Notes: generated from the sequence alone by a model not told the origin. A DNA stretch of 64,000 bases from Parazoarcus communis SWub3 = DSM 12120 (GCF_003226565.1 NZ_QKOE01000005.1:46846-110845); one strand, 5' to 3'. Shown: positions 5,323 to 36,183, counted from the stretch's first letter. Made by a program: numbers and translations.

Positions 5323-8300
5323 ATGGTCATCTCCGAGATCTGCATCAAACGCCCGGTGTTTGCCACGGTGCTGTCCTTGCTGGTCATCCTGATCGGCCTG
5401 ATGTCGTACTCCCGCCTGACCGTGCGCGAGTATCCCAATATCGATGAACCGGTGGTCACGGTTGATACCACTTACCGTGGCGCCAGTGCCGAAATCGTCG
5501 AGTCGCAGGTCACCAAGCCGCTCGAGGATTCTCTGGCGGGGATCGAGGGGGTGGATGTACTGCAGTCGATCAGTCGCCAGGAGCGCAGCCAGATCACCGT
5601 GCGCTTTCGCATCGAGCGCGATGCCGACAGCGCAGCAGCGGATGTGCGCGACCGGGTGTCGCGGGTCCGGCGTCGTTTGCCGGACGATGTTGATGAGCCG
5701 GTGATTGCCAAGGTCGAAGCCGATGCCAACCCCATCATCTGGGTGGCGTTTGCATCCGACCGCCACGACCCGCTGGAGCTGAGCGACTTTGCCAGCCGTA
5801 TCGTCAAGCCGCGGCTGCAGACCTTGCCCGGGGCGGCGGATGCGCGGGTGTTTGGCGAGCGCCGCTATTCGATGCGGATCTGGCTGGACCGCGATCGACT
5901 GGCAGCCTTTGGTGTGACCGCACAGGAGGTCGAGGACGCGATCCGGCGGCAGAACGTGGAGCTGCCTGCTGGCCGTATCGAGGGGCGCGAGCGTGAGTTT
6001 GCCGTGGTCGCGCGCACCGACCTGACCGAGACGACGCAGTTCGAGGCCATCGTGGTGCGGCAGGCGACCGCTGCCGGGGCGTATCCGATCCGGATTCGCG
6101 ACCTGGGGCGGGTGGAGGTCGCACCGGAGAACGAGCGGACCTTGGTGCGCTTCATGGGCAGGCCGGCGATCTCGCTGGGCCTGATCAAGCAGTCCACTGC
6201 CAATCCGCTCGACCTGAAGAAGGGTCTGGTGGAGATGATGCCGGTGCTCGAGGCGGAGTTGCCCGAGGGTATGTCGATGACGATTGCCAACGACACCACG
6301 GTATTCATCGAGCGCTCGATCGATTCGGTGTTCACCACCATCTGGGAGGCGGTGCTGCTGGTGGCAGCGGTGTGCCTGTTCTTCCTGCGAAGCTGGCGGG
6401 CGATGCTGGTGCCGCTGGTGACGATTCCGGTCTCGCTGGTGGGCGCCTTCGCGCTGATGTACGTCATGGGTTTTTCGATCAACACCCTGACCTTACTCGC
6501 GCTGGTGCTGGCGATCGGTCTGGTGGTGGATGATGCGATCGTGGTGCTGGAGAACATCTACCGCCATATCGAGGATGGCATGGCGCCGATGGCTGCGGCG
6601 TTTCGCGGAGCCAGGGAGATCGGCTTTGCCGTGGTGGCAATGACGATCACCCTGGCTGCGGTGTATGCACCGGTGGCCTTCATGACCGGGCGGACCGGCA
6701 AGCTGTTTGCCGAATTTGCCCTGACCTTGGCTGGCGCGGTACTGGTGTCCGGTTTTGTTGCACTGACGCTGTCGCCAATGATGTGCTCCCGCCTGCTGCA
6801 TCACGAGCAGAAGCATGGTGCCGTGTATGTCGCGATCGAACGCTTCCTGGAGTGGCTGACCCAGGGGTACCGCCGGGTACTGGTGCGCATGCTGGGTCTG
6901 CGCTGGATGGTGATGGTGGCGTTTGCACTGGTCGCCGGGAGTGCGGTGGTGCTGCTTGGTCAGCTCAAGTCCGAACTGGCGCCAGTTGAGGACCGAGGGC
7001 GTGTGGTCAGCATCTTCAATGGTCCGGAAGGGGCGACGATGGACTACATGGCCCGCTATGCGGGTCAGATCGAGGACATCTACGGACGTACCGCGGATGT
7101 CGATCGATACCTGGTCATCACTGGCAACCCTACCGTGTCCCAGGGCATCTCGTTTGCCGGCTTTGCTGATTGGTCCGAGCGCGAGCGCAACGCATCGGCG
7201 ATCGCTGCCGAGCTGGGGCCGCAGTTACGTGCGATTCCCGGCATCAATGCCTTTCCGGTACTGCCGGCAGCCTTTGGTCAGAGTCCGCGCTCCAGACCGA
7301 TCAGCTTCGTCGTGGTGAGTTCGGCTTCGTATGAAGAGATGGGGCGCTATACCGACCTGATTGTTGATGAGATGCGCAGCAATCCAGGATTCGTCTCCCC
7401 TGACACCGACCTGAAGCTGACCAAGCCCGAGCTTGGGGTCAAAGTGGATCGCGAGCGGGCGGCTGACCTGGGCGTGCCGGTGGATGTCATCGGGCGTACG
7501 CTGGAAACCATGCTGGGCGGACGCCAGGTGACGCGCTACAAGCTCGATGCCGAACAGTACGATGTGGTTGTGCAGATGGAGGCGGGCAGTCGTGCCGATC
7601 CGCGCGACATCCGCGACATCTATGTGCGCGGCAAGAGTGGCGAGATGGTGCCGCTCGATAACCTGGTCACCGTGGATGAAAGCCTGAGCCCGCGCGAACT
7701 CAATCACTTCGGCCAGCGTCGGGCGGTGACCATCTCCGCCAACCTGGCACCCGACTATTCCATGGGCGAGGCACTGGCTTTTCTCGAGGCTGCCGCTGGC
7801 CGCATCCTGCCGCCCGGCTATGCGGTCGATTACGATGGGCAGTCGCGCGAGTTCAAGAGCAGCTCGGCCAGCCTGGCGCTGGTGTTCCTGCTGGCACTGG
7901 CCTTCATCTACCTGGTGCTGGCGGCGCAGTTCGAGAGCTTTCGTGATCCCTTGATCATCATGCTGACGGTGCCATTGTCGATGGCCGGCGCGTTGGCTGC
8001 GCTGTGGCTGACCGGTGGGACGCTGAACGTTTATAGCCAGATCGGGCTGGTGACGCTGGTCGGGCTGATTACCAAGCACGGCATCCTGATCGTCGAGTTT
8101 GCCAATCAGTTGCGCGATCAGGGGGAACAACTGCGCGCAGCTGTGATCGAAGCTTCCGTGTTGCGTTTACGCCCCATCCTGATGACGACGGGTGCAATGG
8201 TGCTGGGGGCGATTCCGCTGGCGCTGGCGACGGGGGCGGGCGCAGAAAGCCGGCAGCAGATCGGCTGGGTCATCGTGGGTGGTCTGCTGCTGGGTACATT

Positions 8301-22572: not shown

Positions 22573-22692
22573 GGCCGTCGTTCCGATGCCGCCGTTCAGG
22601 TGGCACCCGGAGTCTGTACCCCCGGATCAGGCCCGCCAGCAAGTTGAAGCTTGCTGCGGGCCTGTGTTCATGAAGCCTGGATTGCTGAGTCG

Positions 22693-23772
22693 ATGAGCGC
22701 CCAGCGCAAGATCATCCATTGCGATTGCGACTGTTTTTACGCTGCGGTCGAGATGCGCGACGACCCGAGTCTGCGTGGCAGGCCAGTGGCGGTGGGTGGG
22801 CGTGCCGAGACCCGCGGCGTGATCGCCACCTGCAATTACGAGGCGCGTGCCTTTGGTGTGCATTCGGCAATGTCGACCGCGCGGGCGATGAAGCTGTGTC
22901 CGCAACTGGTGTTGCTGCCACCGGATTTCGAGCGGTATCGCGCGGCCTCGCGCCAGATCCTGGCCATCTACACCGACTACACACCGCTGGTCGAGCCTTT
23001 GTCGCTTGACGAGGCCTACCTCGACGTTACGGGGGTGGCGCGCTGCAAGGGGTCGGCCAGCCTGATGGCCGAGGAAATCCGTGCGCGCATTCACGCGGAA
23101 GTCGGTATCACCGCCTCGGCCGGTATCGCCCCCAACAAGTTCATCGCCAAGGTTGCCAGCGACTGGAACAAGCCCAACGGGCAGTTCGTCGTCAGGCCGC
23201 AGGATGTCGATGCCTTCGTGGCGGCCTTGCCGGTGAAGAAGCTGTTTGGTGTCGGCAAGGTGACCGCTGCGCGCCTGCAAAAGCTGGGTGCCAACACCTG
23301 TGGAGACCTGCGTTCATGGAGTCTGGCCGACCTGACCCGTGAGTTCGGCAGCTTTGGCGCCGCACTCCATCGGCTGTGCCGCGGCATCGATACGCGTGAG
23401 GTCAAGCCGGACCGCACACGCAAGTCCTTGTCGGTAGAGACGACCTACGTGACCGATCTTCCCGACCTTGCCGCCTGCCGGGCAGCCCTGCCGGCGTTGA
23501 TTGGCGAGTTCCGGCGGCGTTTCGAGCGTGCCCGTGAAGCGCGTCCGGTGCACAAGGCCGTCGTCAAGATCAAGTTTGCCGACTTTACCCAGACAACCGT
23601 CGAATGCGTGTCGAGTGCTCCCGACGAATTCGTCTGGCAGCAGTTGCTGGACGAAGGCCACGCCCGCCGCGGCAAACCGGTGCGGCTGCTGGGCGTGGGC
23701 GTGCGTTTTGCCGAAGCCGAGGCTGACGAGCCGGTGCAGATCGATCTGTTCGGGTCGGATCAGGCTCCGTAA
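22693..23772 (+). CDS. dinB: DNA polymerase IV (DinB)
   Basis: N-terminus IIHCDCDCFYAAVEMRDDPSLRGRPVAVGG. Y-family polymerase match over the full length. Confidence 0.9.
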   Translation: MSAQRKIIHCDCDCFYAAVEMRDDPSLRGRPVAVGGRAETRGVIATCNYEARAFGVHSAMSTARAMKLCPQLVLLPPDFERYRAASRQILAIYTDYTPLVEPLSLDEAYLDVTGVARCKGSASLMAEEIRARIHAEVGITASAGIAPNKFIAKVASDWNKPNGQFVVRPQDVDAFVAALPVKKLFGVGKVTAARLQKLGANTCGDLRSWSLADLTREFGSFGAALHRLCRGIDTREVKPDRTRKSLSVETTYVTDLPDLAACRAALPALIGEFRRRFERAREARPVHKAVVKIKFADFTQTTVECVSSAPDEFVWQQLLDEGHARRGKPVRLLGVGVRFAEAEADEPVQIDLFGSDQAP

Positions 23773-24852
23773 TCAGGCGACGGCCGTCCGCTGCTGCGCC
23801 AGCCCGCGACGGATCCAGGCAGCGGATTCGAGCGCGCCCTCCAGGTAGCCACCGCCATATACGGCAGTTTCAGTGCCGCCAAAATGCAGTCGTCCATTCC
23901 AGGCCGGGTCGCGCAGGACTTCGCTGCCGTAGTTCGAGTACGACAGCGAGGGGGTCAGATCCAGACGGCTACAGGTGTGCGGCTCTTTGGCCCAGTCATG
24001 ATAGTCGCGCTCGCCATTGGCAGCCTCGGCGCCGAATAGCTGCACCAGTTGGCTGGCGGCAATCATGTCCAGACCGTCGCGGAAGGCGTCGCGCTGCGCC
24101 GGGGTGAGGATCAGGAAGGCGCCCAGTGCAGCTTGCGAACTTTCGTTGGCGGCATCCCAGGTTTCGGCCAGCACCGATTGGGTGTGCTGGGTGGTGGCCG
24201 TGCCTGACAGCCCCTTGCCGCGCCAGAAGGCCTGCGGATGGCGTGAGATGAGCTTGGCCTGGCCCGCCATCCAGGTGGGGCAGTTGCGCATGGCCTGGCG
24301 GGTGGTGGCGGGCAACGTGGGGGTGAAGGCGATCTTTTCCTCGACCAGGCGTGGTGGCATGGCCAGCACGATCTGGCGTGCGGCAACGATGTGTTCGCCA
24401 TGGGGCTCGGCAAAGCGCAATTCGACATGCGTGCCACGATCGCGCACCTCGACCAGAGCATGCTCGAGGTGAAGCCGGGCACTGGGAAGGCGCGATGCGA
24501 GGGCGCCCACCAGCATGCGCATGCCGCCGTCGATGCGGCGGGCACCGCCATGGACATCGGCCTGCTCGAACGATGTCGGCTCACCACCGGCCTCTTGCTG
24601 CAGCAGGTGCTTGCCGTCCGACCACTGCGGCGAGCTCTTCAGGCCAAGGTCCTCCACCAGCCGGGTGATGCGTGGCTGCAATCCGGGCCAGTACCAGGTG
24701 GGGCCCAGATCATGACCGTCTTCAGTACAGTGGATGCGCCCGCCCAGCCGCTCACGAGCCTCGAAGAGTGCGAAGTCGCGCTTGGCGCCGTGCAGCAGAT
24801 TGGCCAGTGCCAGCCCGCACAGACCGCCGCCGATGATTGCCGTTTCAAGCAT
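23773..24852 (-). CDS. Flavin-containing amine oxidase / FAD-dependent oxidoreductase (NAD(P)-binding Rossmann)
   Basis: N-terminal IIGGGLCGLALANLL dinucleotide-binding motif. Sequence resembles amine oxidases. Its stop codon abuts the dinB stop with zero gap, in convergent orientation. Confidence 0.65.
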   Translation of the reverse strand: MLETAIIGGGLCGLALANLLHGAKRDFALFEARERLGGRIHCTEDGHDLGPTWYWPGLQPRITRLVEDLGLKSSPQWSDGKHLLQQEAGGEPTSFEQADVHGGARRIDGGMRMLVGALASRLPSARLHLEHALVEVRDRGTHVELRFAEPHGEHIVAARQIVLAMPPRLVEEKIAFTPTLPATTRQAMRNCPTWMAGQAKLISRHPQAFWRGKGLSGTATTQHTQSVLAETWDAANESSQAALGAFLILTPAQRDAFRDGLDMIAASQLVQLFGAEAANGERDYHDWAKEPHTCSRLDLTPSLSYSNYGSEVLRDPAWNGRLHFGGTETAVYGGGYLEGALESAAWIRRGLAQQRTAVA

Positions 24853-25032: not shown

Positions 25033-25656
25033 TCAGACGCGGGCGGTGGGGATGACTTGACGGAAGGTCAGATTCAGGCGTGCGCCGGAAACTGAGGGGG
25101 AGGTGGGGATGGCATGCTCCCAGTGCTGCTGAAACGGCGCGCGCATGAGTAGCAACAGGCCGGGTGGGAGTGGCAGGCGGCCGGCGTCGCCTGGCGTTCC
25201 GGGTTTCGGTCGCCAATGAAAAGACCGGGTGGCACCCAGGCTCAGAGAGGCGATGTGCGGCGCGGGGCCGAGGTCGTCCTCGTCGTCGGCGTGCCAGCTG
25301 ACATGGTCGTCGCCGTCACGATACAGGTTGGCGAGCACCGCATTGAAGGAGACTCCGCAGCATGCCTCCACGCTGGAACGCAGCGCCTGCAGCCGAGGCG
25401 TCCACGCGTGCGAATTGAGCAGTTGCTGCGCGTAGCGGTATTCCACCCCTGCATCAGCGAACCAGCACTGCAGCCGGGGCAGGGCAAAGCGCCGCCCCGC
25501 TGCGATGTAATGGCCTTCGGTCCATGGCGTTTCGGCAAGCAGGACATCGAACAGGGCCTGAGCTGCAGCGGGGTCGAGCACGCTTGCACAGGCCAGCAAG
25601 GGCTGCCCAGGCACGGGCTGCAGCGGGGGGCTCGCAGGAGGCCGGGTCGCGCTCAT
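25033..25656 (-). CDS. alkB: AlkB-family Fe(II)/2-oxoglutarate-dependent dioxygenase (nucleic-acid demethylase type)
   Basis: WHADDEDDLG and HAIPTS...RLNLTFRQV match the E. coli AlkB HxD...H triad and the NLTFRQ C-terminus. Its ATG overlaps the stop of the upstream 1741-aa gene (ATGA). Confidence 0.8.
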   Translation of the reverse strand: MSATRPPASPPLQPVPGQPLLACASVLDPAAAQALFDVLLAETPWTEGHYIAAGRRFALPRLQCWFADAGVEYRYAQQLLNSHAWTPRLQALRSSVEACCGVSFNAVLANLYRDGDDHVSWHADDEDDLGPAPHIASLSLGATRSFHWRPKPGTPGDAGRLPLPPGLLLLMRAPFQQHWEHAIPTSPSVSGARLNLTFRQVIPTARV

Positions 25657-28600
25657 CGGCTTGCCGGCTCCTTGCCCGGGAGGTGGCCTTCCATGCGCTG
25701 CAGCAGGTTGCCAATACGCTTCATGTCTTCCCACATGGCGTGATCCATGCGCATCTTGCGGTAAGTAGCGGTGACCAGCGGGGTCAGTACCTTGTCGTAG
25801 ACTTCCTGCATCTCGCGTAGCGCCGCAGTAAAGCCGCTGGTGTCAGGGGCGCCGACTTCGATGCGGGGCTGCAGCTTGTCCAGGCTGGCTGACATCGCGT
25901 CGAGGCCAGCGCGCACCGCAGCCCCACTGGGCAGGGTGGCGTTCAGGTTGTCGACCGCGCGGGCAATGTCCAGCAAGGTGGCTGCGATCCGTGTGCTGCC
26001 GTCGGCTTCGTCGCCACCCAGTTTGCGTCGGCGGATGAACTCTTCGCGGATGGCCTGCCAGCGTGCGGACTCGTCCTCGGTCTGGCTGCCCAGCAGGGCA
26101 GAGAGCTTCAGCAGGTTCTCTTCGGCACCGGTCGTCAGGGTCTGGGCCTCGCCCCGATAGTGGTCGCGCAGCAGGGCGTCGAGTTCGGCGTCGCGCATCG
26201 AGGCGTTGATACGTCCGGCCAGCTTGGTCATGTTGCGGTAGCTGCCCTGCAGTTTGAACGGCGGCTCGGTACGGTAGGCATCTTGCTGGGCGGCGGATTC
26301 GATGTAGGCCAGGTTGACCTTGAGCAGCAGGTCGCGGGCGCGGAACAAGCGTCGCAGCAGCGCGGTGAGTTCGTTGAGTTCCGCGCCGCTGTAGCCGTGA
26401 CTGAACGTGCTGGCGGCGACCTCTTCGCCTTCGGCCATGCGTACCAGCAGGTGCACATCCTTGGGGTCGCGCGATGCGAGCGGTTGCAGCACGGGATTGG
26501 CGGTGAGGCAGTTCTCGATGTAGGACAGGCCGAACAAGGCTTCCCGTCCTGACAGCACATCGCCCAGGTTGTAGATGTCGGCGCGGTTGGCGAGCATGTC
26601 CGGAATCTTGAAGACGTCGCCGGATTCAGTGTAGGGGTTGCCGGCCATGACGACAGCGAAACGTTTGCCGCGCAGGTCGCAGGTGACAGGTTCGCCATTG
26701 ACGACTGCTTCGATCCGTCGTGTGCCATCGGCCAGGGCGATGAACTTCTGCAGGAACTCGGGGTTGGTGTGCTGGATGTCGTCCAGGTAGAGCATGACAT
26801 TGTTGCCCATTGCCAAGCCGAGATTGAGCTTGAGCAATTCCTGCCGCGCTGCGCTGTGGCTGGCGCTGGCGGGGTCGAGTGCGGTGATGTCGTGACCGAG
26901 CGCCGGGCAGTTGATGCGGACGAAGATCATGCCCAGGCGGTCGGCAATGTACTCCATCAAGGTGGTCTTGCCGTAGCCTGGCGGTGAGATCAGCAGCAGC
27001 AGGCCCATGCGGTCGCTGCGGCTGCCTTCACCCGCGGTGCCGATCTGTTTCGACAGATTGTCGCCGACGATGGGCAGGTAGACCTCGTCGATCAGCCGGT
27101 TGCGGACGAAGGACGACAGTGGCTTGGCCTGGAACTGGTCGAGTTGCAGGCGCTTTTTCTCGTTGGCCACAATCTCGAGGCGCAGCGCCTGCAACTGCTC
27201 GAAGGCTGGCACGAACTGTTCGCGGTGCTGCAGGTAGCGCAGTCGCAGCTCGTTGAGGTTCAGTTGCAGGGCGCCATCGACGATGAGGGGATGTTCGCCC
27301 AGCAGACCGTCGACACGGCGGTCGAGGTCGGCGTTGACGCGCACGCGCTCGATATCGAGTGCGATGCGGGTGGCCGCATCGGCAATCCAGGCGGTGGCGG
27401 CAGTCTGCCCGTGGCAGAACGCGGAGACCCAGGCGCGTGCCAGCTGCCAGCGTTCTTCCGGCGGTGCGGCGGCCAGGTCGCGCTGCCAGTCGGCCAGCTC
27501 GCCCCGTTGTTCAAGCCGGCGGAGCAGGTCATCGGCCAGGTCGGCACCGGCGCCGGAGATGACCCAGGCTTCACCGCCACGTGGCACGGCCAACTGGCGA
27601 ACCAGATAGCGTGCCCCTTCGGTGGCGACCTGGCCCGCCGTGTCGCCTTTGGCGTGGAAGCCAAACTTTGGCGCAAAACGGCTCAGCGCTTCGGTCGTCT
27701 CGCGCTCGAGCTGTGCCAGGCTGTCAGCCGCGTCGAACAGCTCGACCATGCGTGTGGCCGCACGTGCCCGGCGCAGCAGCGATTCGCGTTCGCTGTCGAA
27801 GGCCTGGTGGGACCAGTGGAGCAGGGCGAGGGCGCGCGCCTCCGGGCCGTAGACCAGCAACCCGGCGTCGGCTTGCATGCTGGCCAGGGCTTGCAGCAGA
27901 CGGGCGGCATCCTGGTCGTGTACGCCTTTCTGGTAGCCCTCGTGATAGCGGTCGGCGGCGAAGCGCCTCAGGGCTTCGAGCAATTGGGGCAGGCCGTCCG
28001 GACCCTCGGCGCAGCAGGTCTGCAGCGCCTGCCAGCTCAGCGGACCACGATTGTGTTCGATTGCCTCGAGCACGCTGGCGGCGAGATATTCGCCGCGATA
28101 AAGCTGATCGCTCTCCGAGGGCAGGGGGCTGTCCCACCAGGGGCGCAAGGCGGCCAGGCGATCGTCGGCAACCGGGGCGTAGTAGTCGGTGCCGGTCAGG
28201 TGGAACCACATCTCGCCATTGCGCGGCAGCAGGGTCAGGTCGAGTACCTGACGGTTGACGGTGAAGGCATGGCGGCCGAAACGCAAGGTGTTGCCGTCTT
28301 CGGCCACCAGTTCGCGTCGGTCCCGTACTGCGCGGATGGCCTGGTCGTGCGCAGTGCGCAGCCGGGTATCCAGATCGTCGGCTGCCACTGCGGCGCCGAT
28401 TGCGCGTAGGTCGGCGATCTGTTTGCGCAGCTTGGTGATCAGCGCATCGGCGGCAAAGTAGCTATGGACCTGTTCGATTTCACGCAACTGGGCCACGCGG
28501 CGCGCGATGCCGTCGACAATACGGCCGGCGGCTTCGGTCAGCGCCTGGCTGCGCCGCTGACGGGCGTCGAGCAGGCTCTGACGTCGTGCCGACACGGCTT

Positions 28601-30878
28601 CGTACACCGCTTCGCGCTTGCTTGCGATGTCGGCGAGAAAAGCATCATGGTCGGCAAAGCGGCCTTCGAGTTCTTCGAGTTGTGCGAGCAGGCGGGTCAG
28701 TGCTTCGTCGCACTTCTCCGGGGTGTCGGCCAGTTCGAGCGCATTTTCGACGGCTTGTCCGAACAGTTTGAACTGGGCACCGAACTCGGCTGCGGCCTCG
28801 GTTGCGCCAAGGGAACGTCTGCGGTTGCGGCCTTCGGCACGCAGACGGTTGATTTCGGCATACACCGAGGAGATGCCGTCGAGGATGCGGGTGCGTACCA
28901 CGGCGTCGCCGCCAGGCAGGTTGCCAAGCTGCTCGGTCAATAAGTCGAGCCCGGCCGCGGTCTGGTCTAGTTCGCCGAGCAGGGCGGCAATGTCCTCGCT
29001 GGTGGTGGCGTTTGGCAGTGCGGCGCTCAGCCGGGCAATGTCGCGGTGATGGCGGTCGAAGGCGTGCTCGTCGGCGAGAAAGCGCAGCGCGCGTTCGCCG
29101 ACACTGGTCTGTGCGGCAGCGGCCTCGTCGTCCATTTCCGCAATCTGCGGCAGGTCGGCATAGCGCAGGGCCTTGAGCATCTGCAGCCGGCCACGCTGTT
29201 CGCGCAGGCGGCCCAGGGCCTGGACGAAATCGTCTGGCTGCTGCCATAGCATGCTGGCAATATCGGTGAGCAGCGCACGCTGCTGGGCTTGGGCGTCGGC
29301 CAGTGCGCGGGCGGTGTCGCGACGGATGCTTTCGACCTTTTCAAACTCGTCCAGCGTGCTGCGCGCACCGTCGGCAATGGCCTTGACGTCGGCCGCCAGA
29401 CCGACGGCTTCGGTGGCGTCCAGCCAGAAATAGCTGTCAGCGACTCGCCCGCATTGGCGAATGATTTCTTCGTAGGCGCTGCGGGTGGGGGCCTGCTCGC
29501 TGACCGCGCGGGCGATGGACGACAGTTCGGAGATACCCCTGACCAACTCGGCATTGCCGATACGGCCGAAGAAACCTTGTGCAACCCGGGTGGCTGCATG
29601 TTCGTCGCTGGCAAAGGGGGTCTGCCACAGCTGCATCGGATGGTTGCGCGTGGGCTCGTTGTCTTCCGCCTGGAAGACCAGCATCCGCCCATCCTCGAAG
29701 CGGGCATAGCCGTTGCAGACGATGGGGGTGCCGAGCGTTTTTTCGATCAGGTTGTAGGAGAACAGCGCATAGTGGCCAACGCCCGGGCGGTAGAACACGT
29801 AGAGCACGTCTTCGCCATTGGGGGCTCGCAGCATGCGCTTGAAGCGCAATTCACCGACCATCTCGGCAGGCATGTCGAAGCGCTTGTATTCGCCTGACTG
29901 AAGGTAATAGCCACCCGGGAAGATGATGCCGTGGTCTTCCGGCAGCTGCATGCAGGAGCGGCCGATGGCGTCGATGCGAACGACTTTCTGCACCCGGGTG
30001 TTATAGACCAGGTAGCGCTCATCCTTTTCGCGATAGGGGCGTATCCGCAGCAGGATCAGCGAACCCAGGCGGGCAAAGGCGATGTCGGCATCGGCCAGCG
30101 CCTGATTGCGATCTTCCACCGGTTCGCTGTAGATGCCCAGCCCCGACTCGGTGTTGTTCTCGATCTTGACGGTCAGGTCGCCGCCGACGGTCTCGACGAA
30201 AATGGTGTCGAGAATATTGATGTGAGGGTGCTTGCCACCAATGTGATCTGCCCGCGAGGCCACCGTCCACTCAAAGTCGTGCGTCGGTGGCAGCGCAATG
30301 TCGCGCTCGCCGCGGTTGTCGATGTAGTGAATCGTGCCGTCGTTTTCCACCGCCCAGCGGAATACCCGCAGGTCGTGCAGTTGCTGGCCGATCTGGAAGG
30401 CTGCAAGCAGTTTGTGCTGGTGCACCCGCAGCTGGATCAGGCTGGCTTGCTTGTAATAGGCGTACAGTTCGCGAAAGTCGGCGACGAACCGTGGGTCGTC
30501 CAGAAAACTGCCGGCCAGCGGGAGGGCTTCGAGTTCGTCGGCCCCGTCCTGTTCGGACAGGCGGTAGAGCGCAAACACATCGCTGACTGCGGTTTCCTTG
30601 CGCAGCCCGATGAAGACGTTGAAGCCAAACAGCAGGTGTTCGCCGATACGAACAATGTCGCGCGCGTTGCAGTTGTTTTCGGTGCGCGCGCGGGTGCGTA
30701 GCAGCAGTTGCTGTTCGGCGCGACCAAACTCAGCAATCCTCGCGTCATTGAGCGCACGGATCTTGCCCTGCAGGCTGGCCCCCTGTTCGGCCAGCCGCCG
30801 TTTCAGCAGCTCGTAGCTACCGCTGTCTGCGACCAGGGCTTCGGTGGCGTCAGGCGGGGTGGAAGTCTTGTCGGACAT
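25653..30878 (-). CDS. Large 1741-aa multidomain protein: N-terminal ~430 aa beta-rich region of unknown fold, ~850 aa alpha-helical/coiled-coil body, C-terminal AAA+ ATPase domain (Walker A GYGKTT at aa 1301-1306, Walker B VMLYLDDIQH, sensor-1 AVVMAGNPY) and a ~180-aa helical tail. Proteins of this kind are often generically labelled DNA repair ATPase.
   Basis: One continuous ORF with codon usage typical of this genome. The ATPase block LLLISPPGYGKTTLMEYIADRLGMIFVRINCP aligns to classic AAA modules such as p97 D1 ([31 protein letters not shown]). Co-operonic with flotillin upstream and alkB downstream. Confidence 0.8.
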   Translation of the reverse strand: MSDKTSTPPDATEALVADSGSYELLKRRLAEQGASLQGKIRALNDARIAEFGRAEQQLLLRTRARTENNCNARDIVRIGEHLLFGFNVFIGLRKETAVSDVFALYRLSEQDGADELEALPLAGSFLDDPRFVADFRELYAYYKQASLIQLRVHQHKLLAAFQIGQQLHDLRVFRWAVENDGTIHYIDNRGERDIALPPTHDFEWTVASRADHIGGKHPHINILDTIFVETVGGDLTVKIENNTESGLGIYSEPVEDRNQALADADIAFARLGSLILLRIRPYREKDERYLVYNTRVQKVVRIDAIGRSCMQLPEDHGIIFPGGYYLQSGEYKRFDMPAEMVGELRFKRMLRAPNGEDVLYVFYRPGVGHYALFSYNLIEKTLGTPIVCNGYARFEDGRMLVFQAEDNEPTRNHPMQLWQTPFASDEHAATRVAQGFFGRIGNAELVRGISELSSIARAVSEQAPTRSAYEEIIRQCGRVADSYFWLDATEAVGLAADVKAIADGARSTLDEFEKVESIRRDTARALADAQAQQRALLTDIASMLWQQPDDFVQALGRLREQRGRLQMLKALRYADLPQIAEMDDEAAAAQTSVGERALRFLADEHAFDRHHRDIARLSAALPNATTSEDIAALLGELDQTAAGLDLLTEQLGNLPGGDAVVRTRILDGISSVYAEINRLRAEGRNRRRSLGATEAAAEFGAQFKLFGQAVENALELADTPEKCDEALTRLLAQLEELEGRFADHDAFLADIASKREAVYEAVSARRQSLLDARQRRSQALTEAAGRIVDGIARRVAQLREIEQVHSYFAADALITKLRKQIADLRAIGAAVAADDLDTRLRTAHDQAIRAVRDRRELVAEDGNTLRFGRHAFTVNRQVLDLTLLPRNGEMWFHLTGTDYYAPVADDRLAALRPWWDSPLPSESDQLYRGEYLAASVLEAIEHNRGPLSWQALQTCCAEGPDGLPQLLEALRRFAADRYHEGYQKGVHDQDAARLLQALASMQADAGLLVYGPEARALALLHWSHQAFDSERESLLRRARAATRMVELFDAADSLAQLERETTEALSRFAPKFGFHAKGDTAGQVATEGARYLVRQLAVPRGGEAWVISGAGADLADDLLRRLEQRGELADWQRDLAAAPPEERWQLARAWVSAFCHGQTAATAWIADAATRIALDIERVRVNADLDRRVDGLLGEHPLIVDGALQLNLNELRLRYLQHREQFVPAFEQLQALRLEIVANEKKRLQLDQFQAKPLSSFVRNRLIDEVYLPIVGDNLSKQIGTAGEGSRSDRMGLLLLISPPGYGKTTLMEYIADRLGMIFVRINCPALGHDITALDPASASHSAARQELLKLNLGLAMGNNVMLYLDDIQHTNPEFLQKFIALADGTRRIEAVVNGEPVTCDLRGKRFAVVMAGNPYTESGDVFKIPDMLANRADIYNLGDVLSGREALFGLSYIENCLTANPVLQPLASRDPKDVHLLVRMAEGEEVAASTFSHGYSGAELNELTALLRRLFRARDLLLKVNLAYIESAAQQDAYRTEPPFKLQGSYRNMTKLAGRINASMRDAELDALLRDHYRGEAQTLTTGAEENLLKLSALLGSQTEDESARWQAIREEFIRRRKLGGDEADGSTRIAATLLDIARAVDNLNATLPSGAAVRAGLDAMSASLDKLQPRIEVGAPDTSGFTAALREMQEVYDKVLTPLVTATYRKMRMDHAMWEDMKRIGNLLQRMEGHLPGKEPASR

Positions 30879-30947
30879 GGGTTTCCGTGGGGTTCAGTTG
30901 GCCGGGCGCGGCACGGGGGCGGGCACGATGTCCCGCCCACTGTTCGA

Positions 30948-33053
30948 TCAGGATTTGCGCAGGCTGTCGAGCAGGGTATTCAAGGCGGCGCGCTGGGTGT
31001 CGTCGCCGTCGCGCATGACCTTGCCCAGCAGGGCGGCAACCGAAAGGTTCTGCAACTCACCAGCAGAGCTGCCCAGGGCGCCGATGATGCCGCGCAGGTC
31101 ACCGACCATATCGCGCTGACCGTCGAGATGATCCTTGAGACCAATCTGAAGGGTGTTGCTCTTGGCAATGGCGCCGTCGATGCCCTTGCCGACCGAGAGC
31201 GCATTGACGAAGCGCTCGAAGTAGTCGCCCTGGCCACCAACGATGTCGATGCGTGCATTGGCCAGTGCGGTGCCCAGCACGTCGGCTTGTTCGCGGGCGA
31301 TACCCGTCTGTGCGTCGATGGCTTTCAGGGTCTCGATGTGGGCGTTCTCGAGACGCATGCGGAACTCCTCGTGCGCCCGGGTCTCCTCGCTCATGGCCTT
31401 CATGGCTTCGAACTTTTCCGCCAGGCCACGTGCTTCGGCCTGGAAGCGGGCCGCGATGACTTCCGCTTCGGCGCGGCCGGCCTTCACGGTGGCGTCGGCA
31501 TCGGCGGAGCGAACCTGGACGTCGGCCAGGCCCAGCTTTTCCTTGCCCAGTGCCTCGGCTTCCATGCGTGCCTGAAGGGCGTCGGCCTCGGCATGGCCGT
31601 ACTTGGTCACGGCTTCGGCTTCGGCGATCTTGACCTTGGCGTCGACCAGGCCTTGTTTTTCCTTGGCGTCGGCACTGACCAGCAGCACTTTTGCTTCGGC
31701 CAGGCCTGGGGCGGCGGTGATTGCCTCGATGCCTTCGGCTTCACGCTTCTTGGCCTCTGCTTCCTTTTCCGAGACCTTCAGCCGTGCTTCGGCCAGGGTG
31801 AGCTCTTCTGCGGCACGGTGACGGGCGCGGCGTTCCTGTGCTTCGGCGGCCTTGACCTCCATGATCATCTTTTCCTCGGCCTGACCTTCGGCAAGGATGA
31901 CGGTGGATTTCTTGGTGCGATCAGCATCGGCGACCACACGCAGTTCCTTGATGGCTTCTTCCTGTTCGGCCACGGTACGTTCGACCACGATGCGTTCGCG
32001 GATGACGTCGGCAATCGCCTTCTTCTGCACTTCGACGGCGCGTTCCTTGTCGATCTGTTGCAGGGTGACTTCCTTCTCGCGATCGACGATTTCGAGTTCG
32101 CGGGCGCGGGTGACCTTTTCTTCCTCGATGGCAACCGCACGCTTGCGGTTGTTTTCGGCCACTTCGCGTTCCCGTTGCACGTTTTCCTGCTGCACGGTGA
32201 TGGACTGCTCGGCCTGCAGCCGGGCCAGTTCGGCCTTGGTGTGTTCCTCGGCGCGGATGCGGGCCGTTTCGGCCTCTTCGCGCGCCCGGACCGAGGCAAT
32301 CTCGCGCTGCTGACGGGCTTCTGCGTCGGCTTGCTGACGTTCGAGCTCCAGCAGGGTTTCGCGGGTCTCGACGTCCTTCTTCTTGATCTGCATTTCCTCG
32401 TTGCGGCGCAACTCGTTGGTGCGCACGCTTTCGGTGGCCGTCAGCTCGGTGATCTTCTTGATCCCCTGGGCGTCGAGGATGTTGCTGGGATCAAGCCGCG
32501 ACAGCGGCGTCTGTTCGAGGTAGTCGATCGCCGCGTCTTCGAGCACGTAGCCAGAAAGGTCGTCGCCGATCTGGCGGATGATCTCGTCGCGGAAACGGTC
32601 GCGCGCCTGGTAGAGCTCGACGAAATCCATCGCCTTGCCGACGGTCTTGAGCGCCTCTGAGAACTTGGCCGAGAACAGCTCTTCAAGCGTCTCGTGGTTG
32701 GATGCCCGCTCGCAGCCGATACCCTGCGCCACCTTGAGCACGTCTTCGGCAGTCTTGTTGACCCGCACGAAGAACTTGACCTTGATGTCGGCCCGGATGT
32801 TGTCCTGGCAGATCAGCCCCTCATTGCCCGTGCGGTCGATTTCCACCGTCTTGAGGGCAATATCCATCATCTCGGCCTTGTGGATGATGGGGTACACCAT
32901 GCGCCCGGTGAAGGTCACCTCCGGTTCGCTGCGCAAGGTATTGACGATCATCGCGTAACCCTGTTCCACCTTCTTGTAGAACTTGGCGAACATCGCGAAC
33001 AAGCCGAACAGCAGGAAGGCCAGGATGCCGACGGCAATCAGGATGGGTTCCAT
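30948..33053 (-). CDS. yqiK: Flotillin-family SPFH/Band-7 protein (YqiK-like), 701 aa with a long C-terminal coiled-coil extension
   Basis: N-terminal TM segment, an SPFH domain, and an extended EA/KR-rich flotillin repeat region. Confidence 0.85.
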   Translation of the reverse strand: MEPILIAVGILAFLLFGLFAMFAKFYKKVEQGYAMIVNTLRSEPEVTFTGRMVYPIIHKAEMMDIALKTVEIDRTGNEGLICQDNIRADIKVKFFVRVNKTAEDVLKVAQGIGCERASNHETLEELFSAKFSEALKTVGKAMDFVELYQARDRFRDEIIRQIGDDLSGYVLEDAAIDYLEQTPLSRLDPSNILDAQGIKKITELTATESVRTNELRRNEEMQIKKKDVETRETLLELERQQADAEARQQREIASVRAREEAETARIRAEEHTKAELARLQAEQSITVQQENVQREREVAENNRKRAVAIEEEKVTRARELEIVDREKEVTLQQIDKERAVEVQKKAIADVIRERIVVERTVAEQEEAIKELRVVADADRTKKSTVILAEGQAEEKMIMEVKAAEAQERRARHRAAEELTLAEARLKVSEKEAEAKKREAEGIEAITAAPGLAEAKVLLVSADAKEKQGLVDAKVKIAEAEAVTKYGHAEADALQARMEAEALGKEKLGLADVQVRSADADATVKAGRAEAEVIAARFQAEARGLAEKFEAMKAMSEETRAHEEFRMRLENAHIETLKAIDAQTGIAREQADVLGTALANARIDIVGGQGDYFERFVNALSVGKGIDGAIAKSNTLQIGLKDHLDGQRDMVGDLRGIIGALGSSAGELQNLSVAALLGKVMRDGDDTQRAALNTLLDSLRKS

Positions 33054-33116
33054 GTAATCCCCTTCAGGTCATTGCCGGTGGTGCCGGCGGGTCGATGGTG
33101 ATGCGTGATGTTGTGT

Positions 33117-33734
33117 TCAGTCCGCAGCCTGCACGCGGTAGCGCGCATTGGCGGGGTCGTAGTCGATGACGATGGCGCTGGCGCCGCGGGTGAGGGTGTT
33201 GGGTGTGTCCGCAACCACACGGATGTTGTACGTGCTGCCACGGCTATCCACCTCGGCACGGCCGAAGCGTTCGTCGACGCTGTTGGTCAGGATGCGGCAG
33301 CGTTGGCCGACGAGTTCGGCGTTGGTGGTGGCGCCGTGAGTGACGAAGAGGCGGCGCATTGGGCGTACCGCGCGGGCTGCAATCGGCAGCGCCAGGGCAA
33401 AGGCGCCAAGCAGTACCGCGGTGCCGGCGGCGAGACGAAGCGGGACCGTGGGTACCAGTGGCAGCAGCCACAGTGCGGCCAGGCTGCATAAGGTCCAGGC
33501 GATCAGGGTCAGCAGACTGACGACGACCGAAAACGGTACCCCGCCCAGCCCAAAGGCCACCAGGTAGCTGGCAAGGGTGCCAATGTCGCCTACATCGCCG
33601 TCGAGTTCGAGGCCGCCATGTTCGAAGTCGACCAGACCGAACATCGCCAGGAGCCAGTAACACAGTACGATACCGAGCAAGGTGCTGTAGATCGCGGTCG
33701 GGTAGGCAAAGGCGACTGCGGCGAAACTGCTCAT
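33117..33734 (-). CDS. yqiJ: YqiJ/NfeD-like membrane protein (DUF1449; TM helices plus C-terminal OB-fold), the usual partner of flotillin
   Basis: Four TM helices followed by a C-terminal beta domain (RILTNSVDERFGRAEVDSRGSTYNIRVV). Directly upstream of the flotillin gene. Confidence 0.7.
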   Translation of the reverse strand: MSSFAAVAFAYPTAIYSTLLGIVLCYWLLAMFGLVDFEHGGLELDGDVGDIGTLASYLVAFGLGGVPFSVVVSLLTLIAWTLCSLAALWLLPLVPTVPLRLAAGTAVLLGAFALALPIAARAVRPMRRLFVTHGATTNAELVGQRCRILTNSVDERFGRAEVDSRGSTYNIRVVADTPNTLTRGASAIVIDYDPANARYRVQAAD

Positions 33735-33777
33735 GAACGCTCCCTCGTGCGTCGGATGCCGCAATATGCGGCGGGGT

Positions 33778-34107
33778 TCAGGGCCGTGCCAGGCCTTCGG
33801 CGAACTGGATCAGTTCGCGCGTGACCCGCTCCTTGATCGCCAGGCGGTCATTTGCATCCAGGCCAAAGCGCTGCGCCAGGGCGTTGTAGTCGGCCTGGGT
33901 CAGCGAGACGGTCAGGCGCGGACGCTTGGGGCGGTGATTGACCTGCAGACCAAGAACCTTGCGGATCTGGTCCGAGGTGGACAGGTTGCCTTCGAATGCC
34001 GCGCGGCGCACCGCCTCCAGTACGGTGGCCTCGACATCGAAAGCCACCTGTACGGCCCGGATGGCTTCATCCGAGCCTTGCCAGCGTGGCGGCTTGACGG
34101 CGCTCAT
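33778..34107 (-). CDS. Small soluble protein with two tandem ribbon-helix-helix-like repeats (candidate single-chain RHH DNA-binding regulator)
   Basis: Two roughly 45-aa repeats, each a beta-strand (RAVQVAFDV / RLTVSLTQ) followed by two helices. ATGA overlap with the upstream pspA-like gene. No TM helix. Confidence 0.4.
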   Translation of the reverse strand: MSAVKPPRWQGSDEAIRAVQVAFDVEATVLEAVRRAAFEGNLSTSDQIRKVLGLQVNHRPKRPRLTVSLTQADYNALAQRFGLDANDRLAIKERVTRELIQFAEGLARP

Positions 34108-34808
34108 TGGCCTTCAGCGTCGGTCTTGCGTGCGCGGATGCGCTCCATCACCCGGCGCGCACGCTCGGCGTCGCCGCCAATGCCTGCTTCGGCCAGCTTG
34201 ATTTCCAGCGCCCGGGTGCCGGTTTCCTTGTCCAGCGATTCTGCCGCCGCCATGCGGTCGGCCAGCTCTTCATGCCGGCGCTTGATGCGGTCGAGCGACT
34301 CACGCGCATTGAGCAGCTTCGAGCCACTCGCCCCGATGTTGTCGGAGATCGAACGCGTGGCCTTGTAGACACTCTCGGTGGTGCGGGCGATGGCGACTTC
34401 GCGTTCGTGCTCGCGGACCTTGGCTTCGGCGCTCTTGATCAGGTCTTTAAGTTTGCCAACCTGCAAGGCGTAGTCGGCATGCACGCGCGATTGCTCTTCG
34501 AGTTGCTGCTCGGTTTCTGCAATCTTTACGGCGACCTCTTCGGCCAGTGCCTCCTTGCCCTTGCCGAGGGCTTCTAGCGCCAGGTCTTCCAGCCGCAGGG
34601 CTTCCGCGCGGATGCGCTCGATCTCGCGGGCGCTTTGCATTTCCTTGGCCATGACACCGGTCAGTTCGCTCTTTGCCTTCAGGATGGCATTGCGGGCGTC
34701 GATGATTTCCTGCTCGTAGATGCGTGTCGCGTTGGCATCGACCACGCTCTCACCCAGTTCCCGTGCGCTGCCGCGCAGCAGGGTCAGCATCTTTCCGATC
34801 ACGCTCAT
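34104..34808 (-). CDS. PspA/IM30/Vipp1 family protein (YjfJ-like; ESCRT-III fold)
   Basis: 234 aa, coiled-coil, sequence resembles PspA/YjfJ. 11 bp downstream of the DUF2170 gene. Confidence 0.8.
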   Translation of the reverse strand: MSVIGKMLTLLRGSARELGESVVDANATRIYEQEIIDARNAILKAKSELTGVMAKEMQSAREIERIRAEALRLEDLALEALGKGKEALAEEVAVKIAETEQQLEEQSRVHADYALQVGKLKDLIKSAEAKVREHEREVAIARTTESVYKATRSISDNIGASGSKLLNARESLDRIKRRHEELADRMAAAESLDKETGTRALEIKLAEAGIGGDAERARRVMERIRARKTDAEGQ

Positions 34809-34819
34809 GTTCGGCTCCT

Positions 34820-35236
34820 TCAGTTCAGGTAGTGGGCAAGCGCATCGAGGGCATCGAGTGCGTTGTCGCTCAGGGCTGCCACATCGTGGGCGATGTCTTC
34901 GACCCGGGCATCGGCGGCGAGGGCGCCGAACAGCACATAGTGCTCATTGACCCGCCCAAACGAAGACAGCGGAATGGACGGATTGAGGTCGAGCAGGGCT
35001 TCGAGCAACTCGGTACGCGTTTCGCCGCGGACTTCGGCTTCGGTCCACAGGTAGCAGATGCAAAGCGTCTGCGCCTCTGAGGCGGTAATGAAGATGGGTA
35101 GTTCCTCGCGCCCACCGATGACCACCTGGATGACCGGCACCGAACCGGGGATCGGCTGCAGGCTGATCGACGCACCGCCGAGGCGGGCCGTCAGCATGAC
35201 ATCGAGTCCGGCGATCTGCTCTTGTAGCGATTTCAT
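34820..35236 (-). CDS. YjfI-like DUF2170 protein, first gene of the operon
   Basis: 138 aa. A GAGGGGG RBS precedes the ATG at 35236. The YjfI-YjfJ (DUF2170-PspA) pairing is the same as in the E. coli yjfIJ operon. Confidence 0.6.
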   Translation of the reverse strand: MKSLQEQIAGLDVMLTARLGGASISLQPIPGSVPVIQVVIGGREELPIFITASEAQTLCICYLWTEAEVRGETRTELLEALLDLNPSIPLSSFGRVNEHYVLFGALAADARVEDIAHDVAALSDNALDALDALAHYLN

Positions 35237-35278
35237 CCTTTCCCCCTCTTAATGTTTAGGTCGATTGACGACACTGCC

Positions 35279-35307
35279 AATCTAGATGTTGTGACATAAA
35301 ATGTCAA
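35279..35307 (-). promoter_or_regulatory. Sigma-70-type promoter for the yjfI-pspA-flotillin-ATPase-alkB operon: -35 TTGACA, 17-bp spacer, -10 TAGATT
   Basis: Read on the minus strand: TTGACA (35307..35302), 17 nt, TAGATT (35284..35279). It lies about 45 nt upstream of the ATG, and the -35 element is embedded in the palindrome. Confidence 0.55.
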
Positions 35308-35320
35308 GACATTTTATGTC
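35293..35320. promoter_or_regulatory. 28-bp nested perfect palindrome GACATAAAATGTC-AA-GACATTTTATGTC; candidate operator overlapping the -35 element
   Basis: Two perfect 13-bp inverted arms, each internally palindromic (GACAT-AAA-ATGTC). AT-rich, in the 384-bp divergent intergenic region. Confidence 0.55.
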
Positions 35321-35619
35321 CAATTGCTTCCAGCTGAAGCGTGAGCGCATGCGCGACGGATTATGCCTTCGTCTTTGGGATTTGCGCTATGAGAAGTGGA
35401 TGAAGCCGACAGGCTGCATGCACCTGCATAGACGCAATGTCGCGCTTTGACGGGATGGTGTGCTGTGCCAGCAAGCCATGCTCTCCCATGACGATCCATC
35501 CTGCGGGCTTCTAGGTCGGGAGGTGGTCGTGATTTGTGGCGTGAATCATGATGCCTTGCCGCACATGCCAAAGCCGATTAGGCTTGAACAGGGCGCTGAC
35601 ACGGGAAGGAGCACGGGTG

Positions 35620-36183
35620 ATGGGTGAAGCTTTGGAATCCGGTTTGTTGAACCGCAAGGCTTACCTTGAGTGGGAAGCCGGACAGGTGGAAAAACACGAA
35701 TATGTGGCTGGCGAGGTGTTCGCGATGGTTGGTGCGCGGCGGGAACACGTGCTGGTCGCAGGGGGGCTGTACGCGAGGTTGAGAGCGCAACTGAAGGGGA
35801 CGCGCTGCCAGGTTTTTGTCTCTGACATGAAGCTCTTCGTTGCGGAAGCTGACGCCTACTTTTATCCAGACGTGATGGTCAGTTGCGACGAAGGTGACCG
35901 CCGTGCCGAGCTGGCAATCGAGCATCCTTGCCTGGTGGTGGAGGTATTGTCCGAGGGTACGGCGGAATACGATCGAGGGGCAAAGTTCGCGGCCTATCGC
36001 AAACTACCGGCCTTGAGCGAGTACCTGCTGGTTGATATCGGAGCCCGTCGCCTGGAGCTGTTCCGGCGTCAGGCTGATGGCTGGTTGATGACCGAGTCTG
36101 TGGCGGGCATGCCGCCGTTGCAATTGCGTAGCGTGGATTGCACGCTGTCTGTCGACGAGGCCTTTGAAGACCTCGTCGATTGA
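35620..36183 (+). CDS. Uma2-family endonuclease (DUF820, PD-(D/E)xK-like putative restriction endonuclease)
   Basis: 188 aa. GGAGG RBS. The motifs PDVMV...ELAIEHPCLVVEVLSEGTAEYDRGAKFAAY match the Uma2 family. Confidence 0.65.
   Translation: MGEALESGLLNRKAYLEWEAGQVEKHEYVAGEVFAMVGARREHVLVAGGLYARLRAQLKGTRCQVFVSDMKLFVAEADAYFYPDVMVSCDEGDRRAELAIEHPCLVVEVLSEGTAEYDRGAKFAAYRKLPALSEYLLVDIGARRLELFRRQADGWLMTESVAGMPPLQLRSVDCTLSVDEAFEDLVD

Follow-up and report, generated by a model that had tools for sequence, protein, structure and literature searches.

Introduction

Seven adjacent genes in a 64-kb stretch of the genome of Parazoarcus communis SWub3 (DSM 12120) encode a DUF2170 protein, a PspA homolog, a small putative DNA-binding protein, a YqiJ-like membrane protein, a flotillin, a giant AAA+ ATPase and an AlkB dioxygenase. 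We call the whole 64-kb stretch the window and count the coordinates of the locus (25033–35320) and of all its features within it. The closest described relative is an operon class delineated by Ravi et al. (2024; PMC11237479, section 19), in which a CesT/Tir-like YjfI protein and PspA are encoded together with a band-7/flotillin protein, a novel AAA+ ATPase, a YqiJ/YuaF-like protein with three transmembrane (3TM) segments and, sometimes, PLD. The novel ATPase of this class has a coiled coil and a beta-propeller, and abbreviated operons without PspA were noted in the same work (PMC11237479).

A second body of work concerns Pseudomonas aeruginosa, in which PA3732–PA3729 were named bac in 2008 and linked to phenotypes in biofilm formation, swarming, rhamnolipid production and virulence, and in which PA3731 is upregulated under osmotic shock (PMC2587700). 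The operon was extended in 2024, by reverse transcription PCR in strain PA14, to the six co-transcribed genes bacA–F, and BacB–F were found to be increased 6- to 13-fold in a bacA mutant (PMC10948618). A sigma-54 promoter has been proposed upstream of bacA (PMC2587700, PMC10948618). Elsewhere, PA14_16180 is identified as the SPFH protein PaFlo3 and PA14_16160 is termed a short NfeD (PMC13086221), PA3728 is listed as an ATPase (PMC8190622), and PA3728–PA3732 are among the 17 genes upregulated in all phage-infected P. aeruginosa samples (PMC12041424). The ATPase itself was examined in none of these papers, that of Ravi et al. included.

Here, we compare the P. communis locus with these systems and with 80 related loci. 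We conclude that it is a variant of this known operon family, which has been described computationally and partly studied, and not a new kind of system. With moderate confidence, we further favor a reading of the locus as a betaproteobacterial (Rhodocyclaceae-like) form of the bac-type flotillin/AAA+/PspA membrane-stress operon, in which the giant ATPase would act on the SPFH scaffold. The original prediction for this stretch, made from the DNA alone, had taken the gene combination to be uncharacterized; this does not stand, the operon type having been explicitly described by Ravi et al. (PMC11237479).

A Variant of a Known Operon Family

As their coordinates and translations indicate, the seven open reading frames (ORFs) all lie on the minus strand and run in one direction. 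The first gene, g1 (34820–35236), encodes a short, 138-aa DUF2170 protein of the YjfI type with a CesT-like chaperone fold, homologous to the core of BacA. It is followed by g2 (34104–34808; 234 aa), a PspA/IM30 family protein of the YjfJ type and thus a member of the bacterial ESCRT-III superfamily, and by g3 (33778–34107; 109 aa), a candidate single-chain double ribbon-helix-helix (RHH) protein and proposed autorepressor, the ATG of which overlaps the stop codon of g2. The YqiJ-like (short NfeD-like) membrane protein g4 (33117–33734) has 205 aa from the start chosen by the gene caller, with an ORF that reaches 33764. Next come g5 (30948–33053; 701 aa), a YqiK-type flotillin (SPFH/band-7) with an N-terminal transmembrane (TM) helix and a long coiled coil, and g6 (25653–30878), the cytosolic giant DUF3686-AAA+ protein of 1741 aa. 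The last gene, g7 (25033–25656), encodes an AlkB-family Fe(II)/2-oxoglutarate dioxygenase of 207 aa when read from the ATG that overlaps the stop codon of g6, although its ORF reaches 25734. From g1 to g7 the intergenic gaps are 11, −4, 43, 63, 69 and −4 bp, with an ATGA overlap at both the g2/g3 and the g6/g7 junction. Both the compact co-directional layout and the gene labels of the original prediction are thus borne out, the former by the ORF coordinates and the latter by Pfam, BLASTP and hhalign.

The products of g4, g5 and g6 correspond to the YqiJ-like protein, the flotillin and the giant ATPase of the class of Ravi et al. The PLD (HKD) hydrolase that may stand at the 3′ end of these operons in "some Proteobacteria" (PMC11237479) is optional, and it is absent from the window. 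The same paper places RHH proteins only in the spermidine-synthase class; for the flotillin-ATPase class it reports neither an RHH protein nor an operator, and no AlkB.

The likeness to bacABCDEF of P. aeruginosa (PA3732–PA3727 / PA14_16140–16200) is similarly close. The first four gene types stand in the same order as in the window set, namely DUF2170 (BacA), PspA-like (BacB), short NfeD/YqiJ-like (BacC) and SPFH (BacD/PaFlo3), and the co-transcribed bacE comes next. In other Pseudomonas loci (L020, L021, L024, L026, L030 and L081 of our survey) the order is DUF2170, PspA, YqiJ-like, flotillin and giant DUF3686-AAA+. Several features nevertheless set the window apart from bac. Its DUF2170 protein is short, without the N-terminal extension of about 45 aa found in BacA-type proteins; it has the additional double-RHH-type gene g3; its operator reads GACAT-N3-ATGTC, whereas Pseudomonas-type loci carry two T(T/C)ACATGT(A/G)A palindromes; the ATPase gene is followed by AlkB, with no PLD or rhomboid gene there; and its promoter is of the sigma-70 type, so that the published sigma-54 dependence has no counterpart in the window.

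Relatives of these proteins also occur in Escherichia coli, with g5 resembling YqiK, the g4 family YqiJ, g2 YjfJ and g1 YjfI. In E. coli K-12, yqiJK and yjfIJ are at separate loci and neither adjoins a giant ATPase gene, whereas in the window all are joined in one operon with the ATPase. A further parallel is HflK/C–FtsH, an SPFH-AAA+ pair (PMC13220708 is consistent with this), in which, as in the window, an SPFH scaffold is tied genetically to an AAA+ machine. This is a likeness of possible working and not of membership, and g6 differs from FtsH in that it has neither a protease domain (Pfam) nor a TM segment (TM scan).

The Giant ATPase Accompanies a Flotillin and a YqiJ-like Protein

Several lines of evidence point to the flotillin and the YqiJ-like protein as the constant partners of g6. 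We took one genome per species and analyzed the best 80 of at least 585 relatives of the giant ATPase with 10-kb flanks each, using iterative profile searches of the window proteins against all ORFs of these loci; 8 further loci were examined besides. The 80 loci span Beta-, Gamma- and Zetaproteobacteria, Myxococcota, Actinomycetota, Acidobacteriota and one Clostridia-labelled metagenome-assembled genome. The flotillin is encoded in 77 of them, immediately before the giant ATPase gene in almost every case, and the three loci that lack it are on contigs that end too early upstream. The YqiJ-like protein is found in 73, nearly always just ahead of the flotillin gene. In the 80 loci as in the 8 others, the giant DUF3686-AAA+ gene follows these two wherever sufficient upstream sequence is available. 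The same arrangement is seen in the three most distant members examined (31–34% identity), where a 205- to 212-aa gene and a Band_7 gene of 647–673 aa precede the giant ATPase. We conclude that the invariant core of the operon is a triad of YqiJ-like membrane protein, YqiK-type flotillin and giant DUF3686-AAA+ ATPase. Given that this triad is conserved, while PspA is found in 33 of the 80 loci and AlkB in none, the ATPase is first of all a flotillin partner, PspA is an add-on and AlkB a passenger. The co-occurrence of the ATPase with PspA, flotillin, NfeD and AlkB, which the original prediction proposed as a check, therefore holds for flotillin and the YqiJ/NfeD-like protein, only in part for PspA, and not for AlkB. 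Separation of the ATPase family from flotillin genes, which would have counted against the prediction, is not seen, yet the constant partners of the ATPase are flotillin and the YqiJ-like protein and not PspA.

The assignments of g4 and g5 rest on family-level comparisons. A 16-member g4 family profile matches E. coli YqiJ (hhalign probability 94%, E 9e-8, 137 columns), although g4 shows no similarity to YqiJ by BLAST; its N-terminal half is hydrophobic, with several TM-like stretches, and its C-terminal domain is soluble (TM scan). The g5 protein aligns with E. coli flotillin YqiK in BLASTP (E 7e-38, 28% identity over 461 aa) and has a single N-terminal TM helix at aa 1–27 (TM scan); distant members of its family are recorded with Band_7. 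Neither protein matches anything in Pfam, NCBIfam or PADLOC, and a sequence search of the PDB with g5 gave no meaningful relative. The ATPase-paired flotillins are unusually conserved across phyla, with 175 positions at least 90% identical in 70 homologs, and the Pfam Band_7 and Flot models miss g5. We considered the flotillin C-terminal tail as a conserved docking site for the ATPase and rejected it: the last ~50 residues are the least conserved.

Other genes that recur near the ATPase are all membrane-related, namely PLD (14–17 loci), rhomboid (7 loci) and TelA. The last of these, a toxic anion resistance gene, recurs beside the giant ATPase in L036–L060 (Xanthomonadales), L088 and L090; it is nearby in two of the three distant loci, and in one of the three a convergent PspA gene adjoins the ATPase. 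In Xanthomonadales, a conserved 235-aa gene without a Pfam match overlaps the ATPase stop codon.

The DUF2170–PspA Pair Is Facultative

The product of g1 is a DUF2170 protein (Pfam E 4.7e-28) that matches E. coli YjfI (E 1e-10). In the comparison with BacA, PDB 8q8o, a DUF2170 family protein, matches g1 over its full length (E 2e-8), and g1 aligns to positions 85–202 of the 206-position NCBIfam BacA model. Because the alignment covers only these positions, g1 lacks the BacA N-terminal extension. The product of g2 is assigned to PspA_IM30 by Pfam (E 4e-31) and shares 28% identity with E. coli YjfJ (E 1e-19); a sequence search of the PDB with g2 gave no meaningful relative. As in bac and in the class of Ravi et al., the DUF2170 gene is directly followed by the YjfJ-type PspA gene, 11 bp away. 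No match to PspF, PspB or PspC of the classical Psp system was found among the seven products or the flanking ORFs.

Homologs of g1 and of g2 are each present in 33 of the 80 loci, in Proteobacteria only. The pair is thus a facultative add-on that precedes the triad in many Beta- and Gammaproteobacteria, and the PspA-less short form noted by Ravi et al. is confirmed by our survey.

A Giant ATPase with a Beta-Propeller and a Single AAA+ Module

The domains of g6 identified with Pfam are DUF3686 (E 2e-197, aa 36–484), DUF7902 (aa 605–689) and a single AAA domain (~aa 1291–1430). A long N-terminal helix is followed by the beta-propeller-like DUF3686 domain, a region of ~770 aa that includes DUF7902, and the C-terminal AAA+ module. 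Among 1.84 billion proteins, DUF3686 has 723 cluster representatives at 50% identity. The relatives of g6 number more than 5,500 in 90% clusters, and the closest named ones are from Rhodocyclaceae (73–74% identity). Invariant in 19 homologs down to 32% identity are SPPGYGKTT (Walker A), D1366-D1367-I-Q-H (a DD Walker B), MAGNPYT (with the sensor-1 Asn) and PDMLxNR (with a single conserved Arg). The full sequence has no meaningful relative in the PDB; when a profile of the AAA region was searched against the PDB, classical-clade AAA proteins came first (Rix7/NVL, p97, NSF, AFG2 and PEX6; E 5e-7 to 1e-4).

Eukaryotic ESCRT-III polymers are remodeled by Vps4, and it was originally suggested that g6 may follow a Vps4-like logic, as a dedicated ATPase acting on the PspA and/or flotillin scaffold. 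In the form centered on PspA, g6 would be a disassemblase dedicated to the PspA (ESCRT-III) polymer, for which flotillin and NfeD would provide only a platform. In the window, as in the Vps4/ESCRT-III system, an AAA+ protein is encoded together with an ESCRT-III superfamily protein; PspA is part of the operon here and in 33 of the 80 loci, and it lies beside the ATPase, convergently, in one distant locus. The clade of the best PDB matches is also that of Vps4, and no Vps4 equivalent is known from bacteria, according to Ravi et al. and a 2025 review (PMC11237479, PMC7619361). However, the linkage to PspA is facultative. In 47 of the 80 loci the ATPase is accompanied by flotillin and YqiJ with no PspA nearby (within the 10-kb flanks), and these include every surveyed locus from Actinomycetota, Myxococcota and Acidobacteriota. 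Moreover, g6 has no MIT domain (Pfam), begins with a long helix and a beta-propeller, is about four times larger than Vps4, and has a DD Walker B and, on inspection, no aromatic pore loop. A Vps4-like action on PspA is possible where PspA is present, but it fits these data less well than a partnership with flotillin, and as an account of the giant ATPase in general we regard it as unlikely.

The reading that we favor, in which g6 acts on the SPFH scaffold, has its own difficulties, and the following points weigh against it. The contact between g6 and flotillin, the oligomeric state of g6 and its substrate are all read from gene order. The survey covers the 80 top-scoring loci of at least 585, with the rest sampled only through the three distant members. 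We infer that BacE (PA14_16190 / PA3728) is the DUF3686 protein from the other Pseudomonas loci and from the label "ATPase", and not from the P. aeruginosa genome. Pfam Band_7 and NfeD were not detected in g5 and g4 of the window, in g5 even at E up to 10. The PDB matches that would place g6 in the classical AAA+ clade cover only 35–68 residues around Walker A. Finally, Walker B is DD and not DE, and a manual alignment puts GHDITALDP, which lacks an aromatic residue, at pore loop 1; this weakly argues against a threading unfoldase mechanism.

AlkB Is a Lineage-Specific Passenger

The product of g7 has the features of an AlkB dioxygenase: it matches 2OG-FeII_Oxy_2 (Pfam E 1.3e-30), and its translation shows WHADDE (the HxD motif), EHAIP (the distal His) and RLNLTFR. 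No NCBIfam equivalog matches it. Based on the ATGA overlap, g6 and g7 are likely to be co-translated in this organism. An AlkB gene was found beside the giant ATPase in none of the 80 surveyed and none of the 8 further loci, including the five closest relatives, and it follows the ATPase only in contigs identical to the window. AlkB is therefore outside the conserved module, as a lineage-specific passenger, and its place in the module proposed in the original prediction is not upheld.

These observations bear on the names given to the ATPase in databases, which are "ATPase involved in DNA repair" for Pfam DUF3686 and "DNA repair ATPase" for the NCBI protein. A reading in which g6 works together with AlkB, and with the nearby DinB, on damaged nucleic acid could draw on these names, on the overlap of the AlkB start codon with the g6 stop codon and on the presence of dinB ~2 kb downstream. 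Yet AlkB is missing from 88 of 88 other loci, even from the five closest relatives (70–75% identity), g6 has no nucleic-acid-binding domain (Pfam), and every conserved neighbor is a membrane or membrane-stress protein. In the literature that we searched, DUF3686 is not mentioned. A role of g6 as a DNA-repair ATPase thus appears extremely improbable to us. Neither context nor domains support the name here, and the adjacency of AlkB in this organism should not be taken as confirming it.

The closest relatives also suggest how the window operon came to differ. In all five, a Zn-ribbon gene of 182–187 aa lies between the flotillin and ATPase genes (L083 8171–8963; L084 8381–8929; L091 334–891; L092 5378–5941; L093 5441–5989), where the window has the 69-bp gap at 30879–30947. 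Downstream of the ATPase, unrelated genes are found in three of the five, whereas one (Denitromonas) has PLD and one reaches the contig end; Denitromonas has an additional 79-aa gene between flotillin and ATPase. Of the 80 loci, 10 have a homolog of the Zn-ribbon gene, 9 one of the 79-aa gene and 17 a PLD gene, which Denitromonas has as well. The 64-kb window contains no homolog of the Zn-ribbon gene, of the 79-aa gene or of PLD (the last by tblastn), and a TerB-like accessory gene sought in it was not found. The operon of the window is thus a trimmed form that has gained AlkB at its 3′ end, in this lineage only.

A Candidate Repressor and Its Operator

A strong promoter and a palindromic operator upstream of the operon, as originally predicted, are confirmed at 35279–35320. 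The promoter is of the sigma-70 type (TTGACA-17-TAGATT, 35279–35307, minus strand) and matches the consensus at 10 of 12 positions. Two adjacent 13-bp palindromes, GACATAAAATGTC-TT-GACATTTTATGTC, form a 28-bp element at 35293–35320 that we propose as the binding site of g3, and the promoter-proximal palindrome contains the −35 hexamer. The motif GACAT-N3-ATGTC occurs twice in the 64-kb window, against 0.07 copies expected by chance, both times in this element.

The protein g3 matches nothing in Pfam, NCBIfam or PADLOC. It is newly recognized here as a predicted single-chain double RHH protein, of the class of TraY and AvtR. Its homologs are found in 13 of the 80 loci, always together with PspA. 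Upstream of the DUF2170 gene, GACAT-N3-ATGTC is present in 14 of 15 operons with g3 and in 0 of 20 without it, and this co-variation of g3 and operator is likewise new. In most g3-type operons one operator copy reads TTGACAT, with the −35 hexamer inside it and a −10-like box after it, so that the −35/operator/−10 layout of the window is seen again in related operons. The presence of g3 tracks the motif over the −35 box, which is most simply explained if g3 acts as a repressor of the operon through promoter occlusion, a role that we propose from sequence comparison.

Elsewhere in 90 loci (~1.9 Mb) the motif is found only twice. One copy is at 6828–6840 of L055 (Pseudoalteromonas), ~300 bp upstream of a YqiJ-like gene and with no DUF2170, PspA or g3 gene nearby, which suggests that a regulator encoded elsewhere directly controls the flotillin-ATPase block there. 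The other is a second copy in L062, ~150 bp from the main operator of the same locus. In Marinobacter, the operator is located between divergent PspA and flotillin blocks.

BacA-Type Operons Have a Different Upstream Palindrome

The operons with g3 and those without it differ in their DUF2170 proteins as well. All 13 surveyed g3 operons encode a short DUF2170 protein (134–166 aa), whereas all 20 operons without g3 (L018–L081) encode a long one of the BacA type, which begins with a conserved segment of ~45 aa that none of the g3 operons has. This segment, which reads SSAHYQRxFRQRLREQGLVKKEVWILPE, gives only sub-threshold MazE-like matches in Pfam (PF11455; E 0.009–0.05) and no match in the PDB. 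A homology between the BacA extension and the g3 family was considered and rejected, as hhalign shows none.

In 16 of the 20 g3-less operons, two copies of another palindrome, T(T/C)ACATGT(A/G)A, lie 20–80 bp upstream of the start, in 14 of them at distances of ~48 and ~25 bp from the BacA start codon. The copies often flank a TTGACA-like hexamer. Of the remaining four operons, one has a single copy and three have a CATGTAA-like variant. The palindromes lie inside an apparent sigma-70 promoter, for example TTGACA-17-TATAAT in L073, and with palindrome and promoter so close to the ATG the leader would be very short. In L046 (Lysobacter), a 38-bp perfect palindrome, GAACTAGACAATTTTGTCTAGACAAAATTGTCTAGTTC, is found upstream of the DUF2170 gene.

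Based on this pattern, the BacA extension is a candidate DNA-binding module that may do the job of g3, and the TTACATGTAA pair upstream of BacA-type genes is the candidate target of its 45 N-terminal residues. Such a module would fit the derepression of bacB–F in the bacA mutant (PMC10948618). Upstream of the 33 DUF2170 genes we find no convincing sigma-54 site (TGGCAC-N5-TTGC-like), and a sigma-54 promoter, as proposed for P. aeruginosa bac, agrees poorly with the alternative operator and the candidate BacA N-terminal module.

A Probable Envelope Response Rather Than a Dedicated Phage Defense

The GC content is uniform across the region. On either side lie ordinary chromosomal genes, with a Uma2-like gene, alaS and the gene for a cobalamin adenosyltransferase upstream and those for an FAD amine oxidase, DinB and DAHP synthase downstream. 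The amine oxidase gene (23773–24852, minus strand) is on the same strand as AlkB and 180 bp downstream of it, and a homolog near the ATPase was found in none of the 80 loci. The dinB (Pol IV) gene (22651–23772, plus strand) is convergent and touches the amine oxidase stop codon. The Uma2-family gene (35548–36183, plus strand), divergent from the operon, encodes a putative endonuclease that is defense-like but not conserved.

The original prediction of an envelope-stress or phage-response module agrees, as a general idea, with the published P. aeruginosa bac data (PMC2587700, PMC10948618, PMC12041424). In the narrower form of a dedicated anti-phage system that senses infection at the membrane, the idea could draw on the upregulation of PA3728–PA3732 in all phage-infected P. 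aeruginosa samples (PMC12041424), on the Uma2 endonuclease-like gene divergently upstream, and on a TIR_2-domain gene that stands convergently just after the ATPase in the close relative L093 (11221–12180, minus strand) but is not conserved. Phage induction would, however, be equally expected of a general Psp-type envelope response. PADLOC gave no significant match, only weak ones to LmuB and IetA (E > 0.002) and one of the AlkB 2OG domain to CARF_2OG; the GC content is uniform and the flanks include housekeeping genes (alaS, cobalamin adenosyltransferase, DAHP synthase); and the strong conservation of flotillin and ATPase over broad taxa is more like that of a housekeeping stress system than of a fast-evolving defense island. 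We therefore consider a dedicated defense function quite improbable.

Proposed Mechanism and Implications

Flotillins of the YqiK type face the cytoplasm. On the reading that g6 is a partner of the SPFH scaffold, we propose that g3 would repress the operon by occluding the promoter until a signal, probably envelope damage, relieves the repression. The flotillin and the YqiJ-like protein would then form an SPFH scaffold that faces the cytoplasm from the inner membrane, and onto which the soluble giant ATPase may dock through its helix and beta-propeller end. The ATPase would spend ATP on assembling, opening or recycling this scaffold or the proteins held there, in parallel to HflK/C–FtsH. PspA, handled by the DUF2170 chaperone, may be brought to the same sites and seal the damaged membrane.

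A bolder generalization, which we put forward tentatively and hold to be rather less probable than not, is that DUF3686 giant AAA+ proteins are an uncharacterized class of membrane-scaffold remodeling motors, a bacterial counterpart to machines of the Vps4/p97 type. Their beta-propeller would dock on cytoplasm-facing flotillin cages that ATP serves to open or recycle, and, where PspA is present, they might load or strip PspA/ESCRT-III polymers at the damaged membrane. If true, this would provide the ESCRT-III and flotillin systems of bacteria with the ATP-driven step that reviews find lacking in them.

No ATP-driven remodeler is known for either the PspA/ESCRT-III or the flotillin scaffolds of bacteria (PMC7619361, PMC11237479), and this operon family offers a concrete candidate. 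That the survey points to flotillin over PspA as the constant partner of the ATPase changes which experiment comes first. The predicted pair of g3 and operator offers a handle for finding the inducing signal, and the predicted BacA operator and N-terminal domain, if true, would explain the published negative control by BacA of the bac operon, an operon that affects biofilm formation and virulence in P. aeruginosa.

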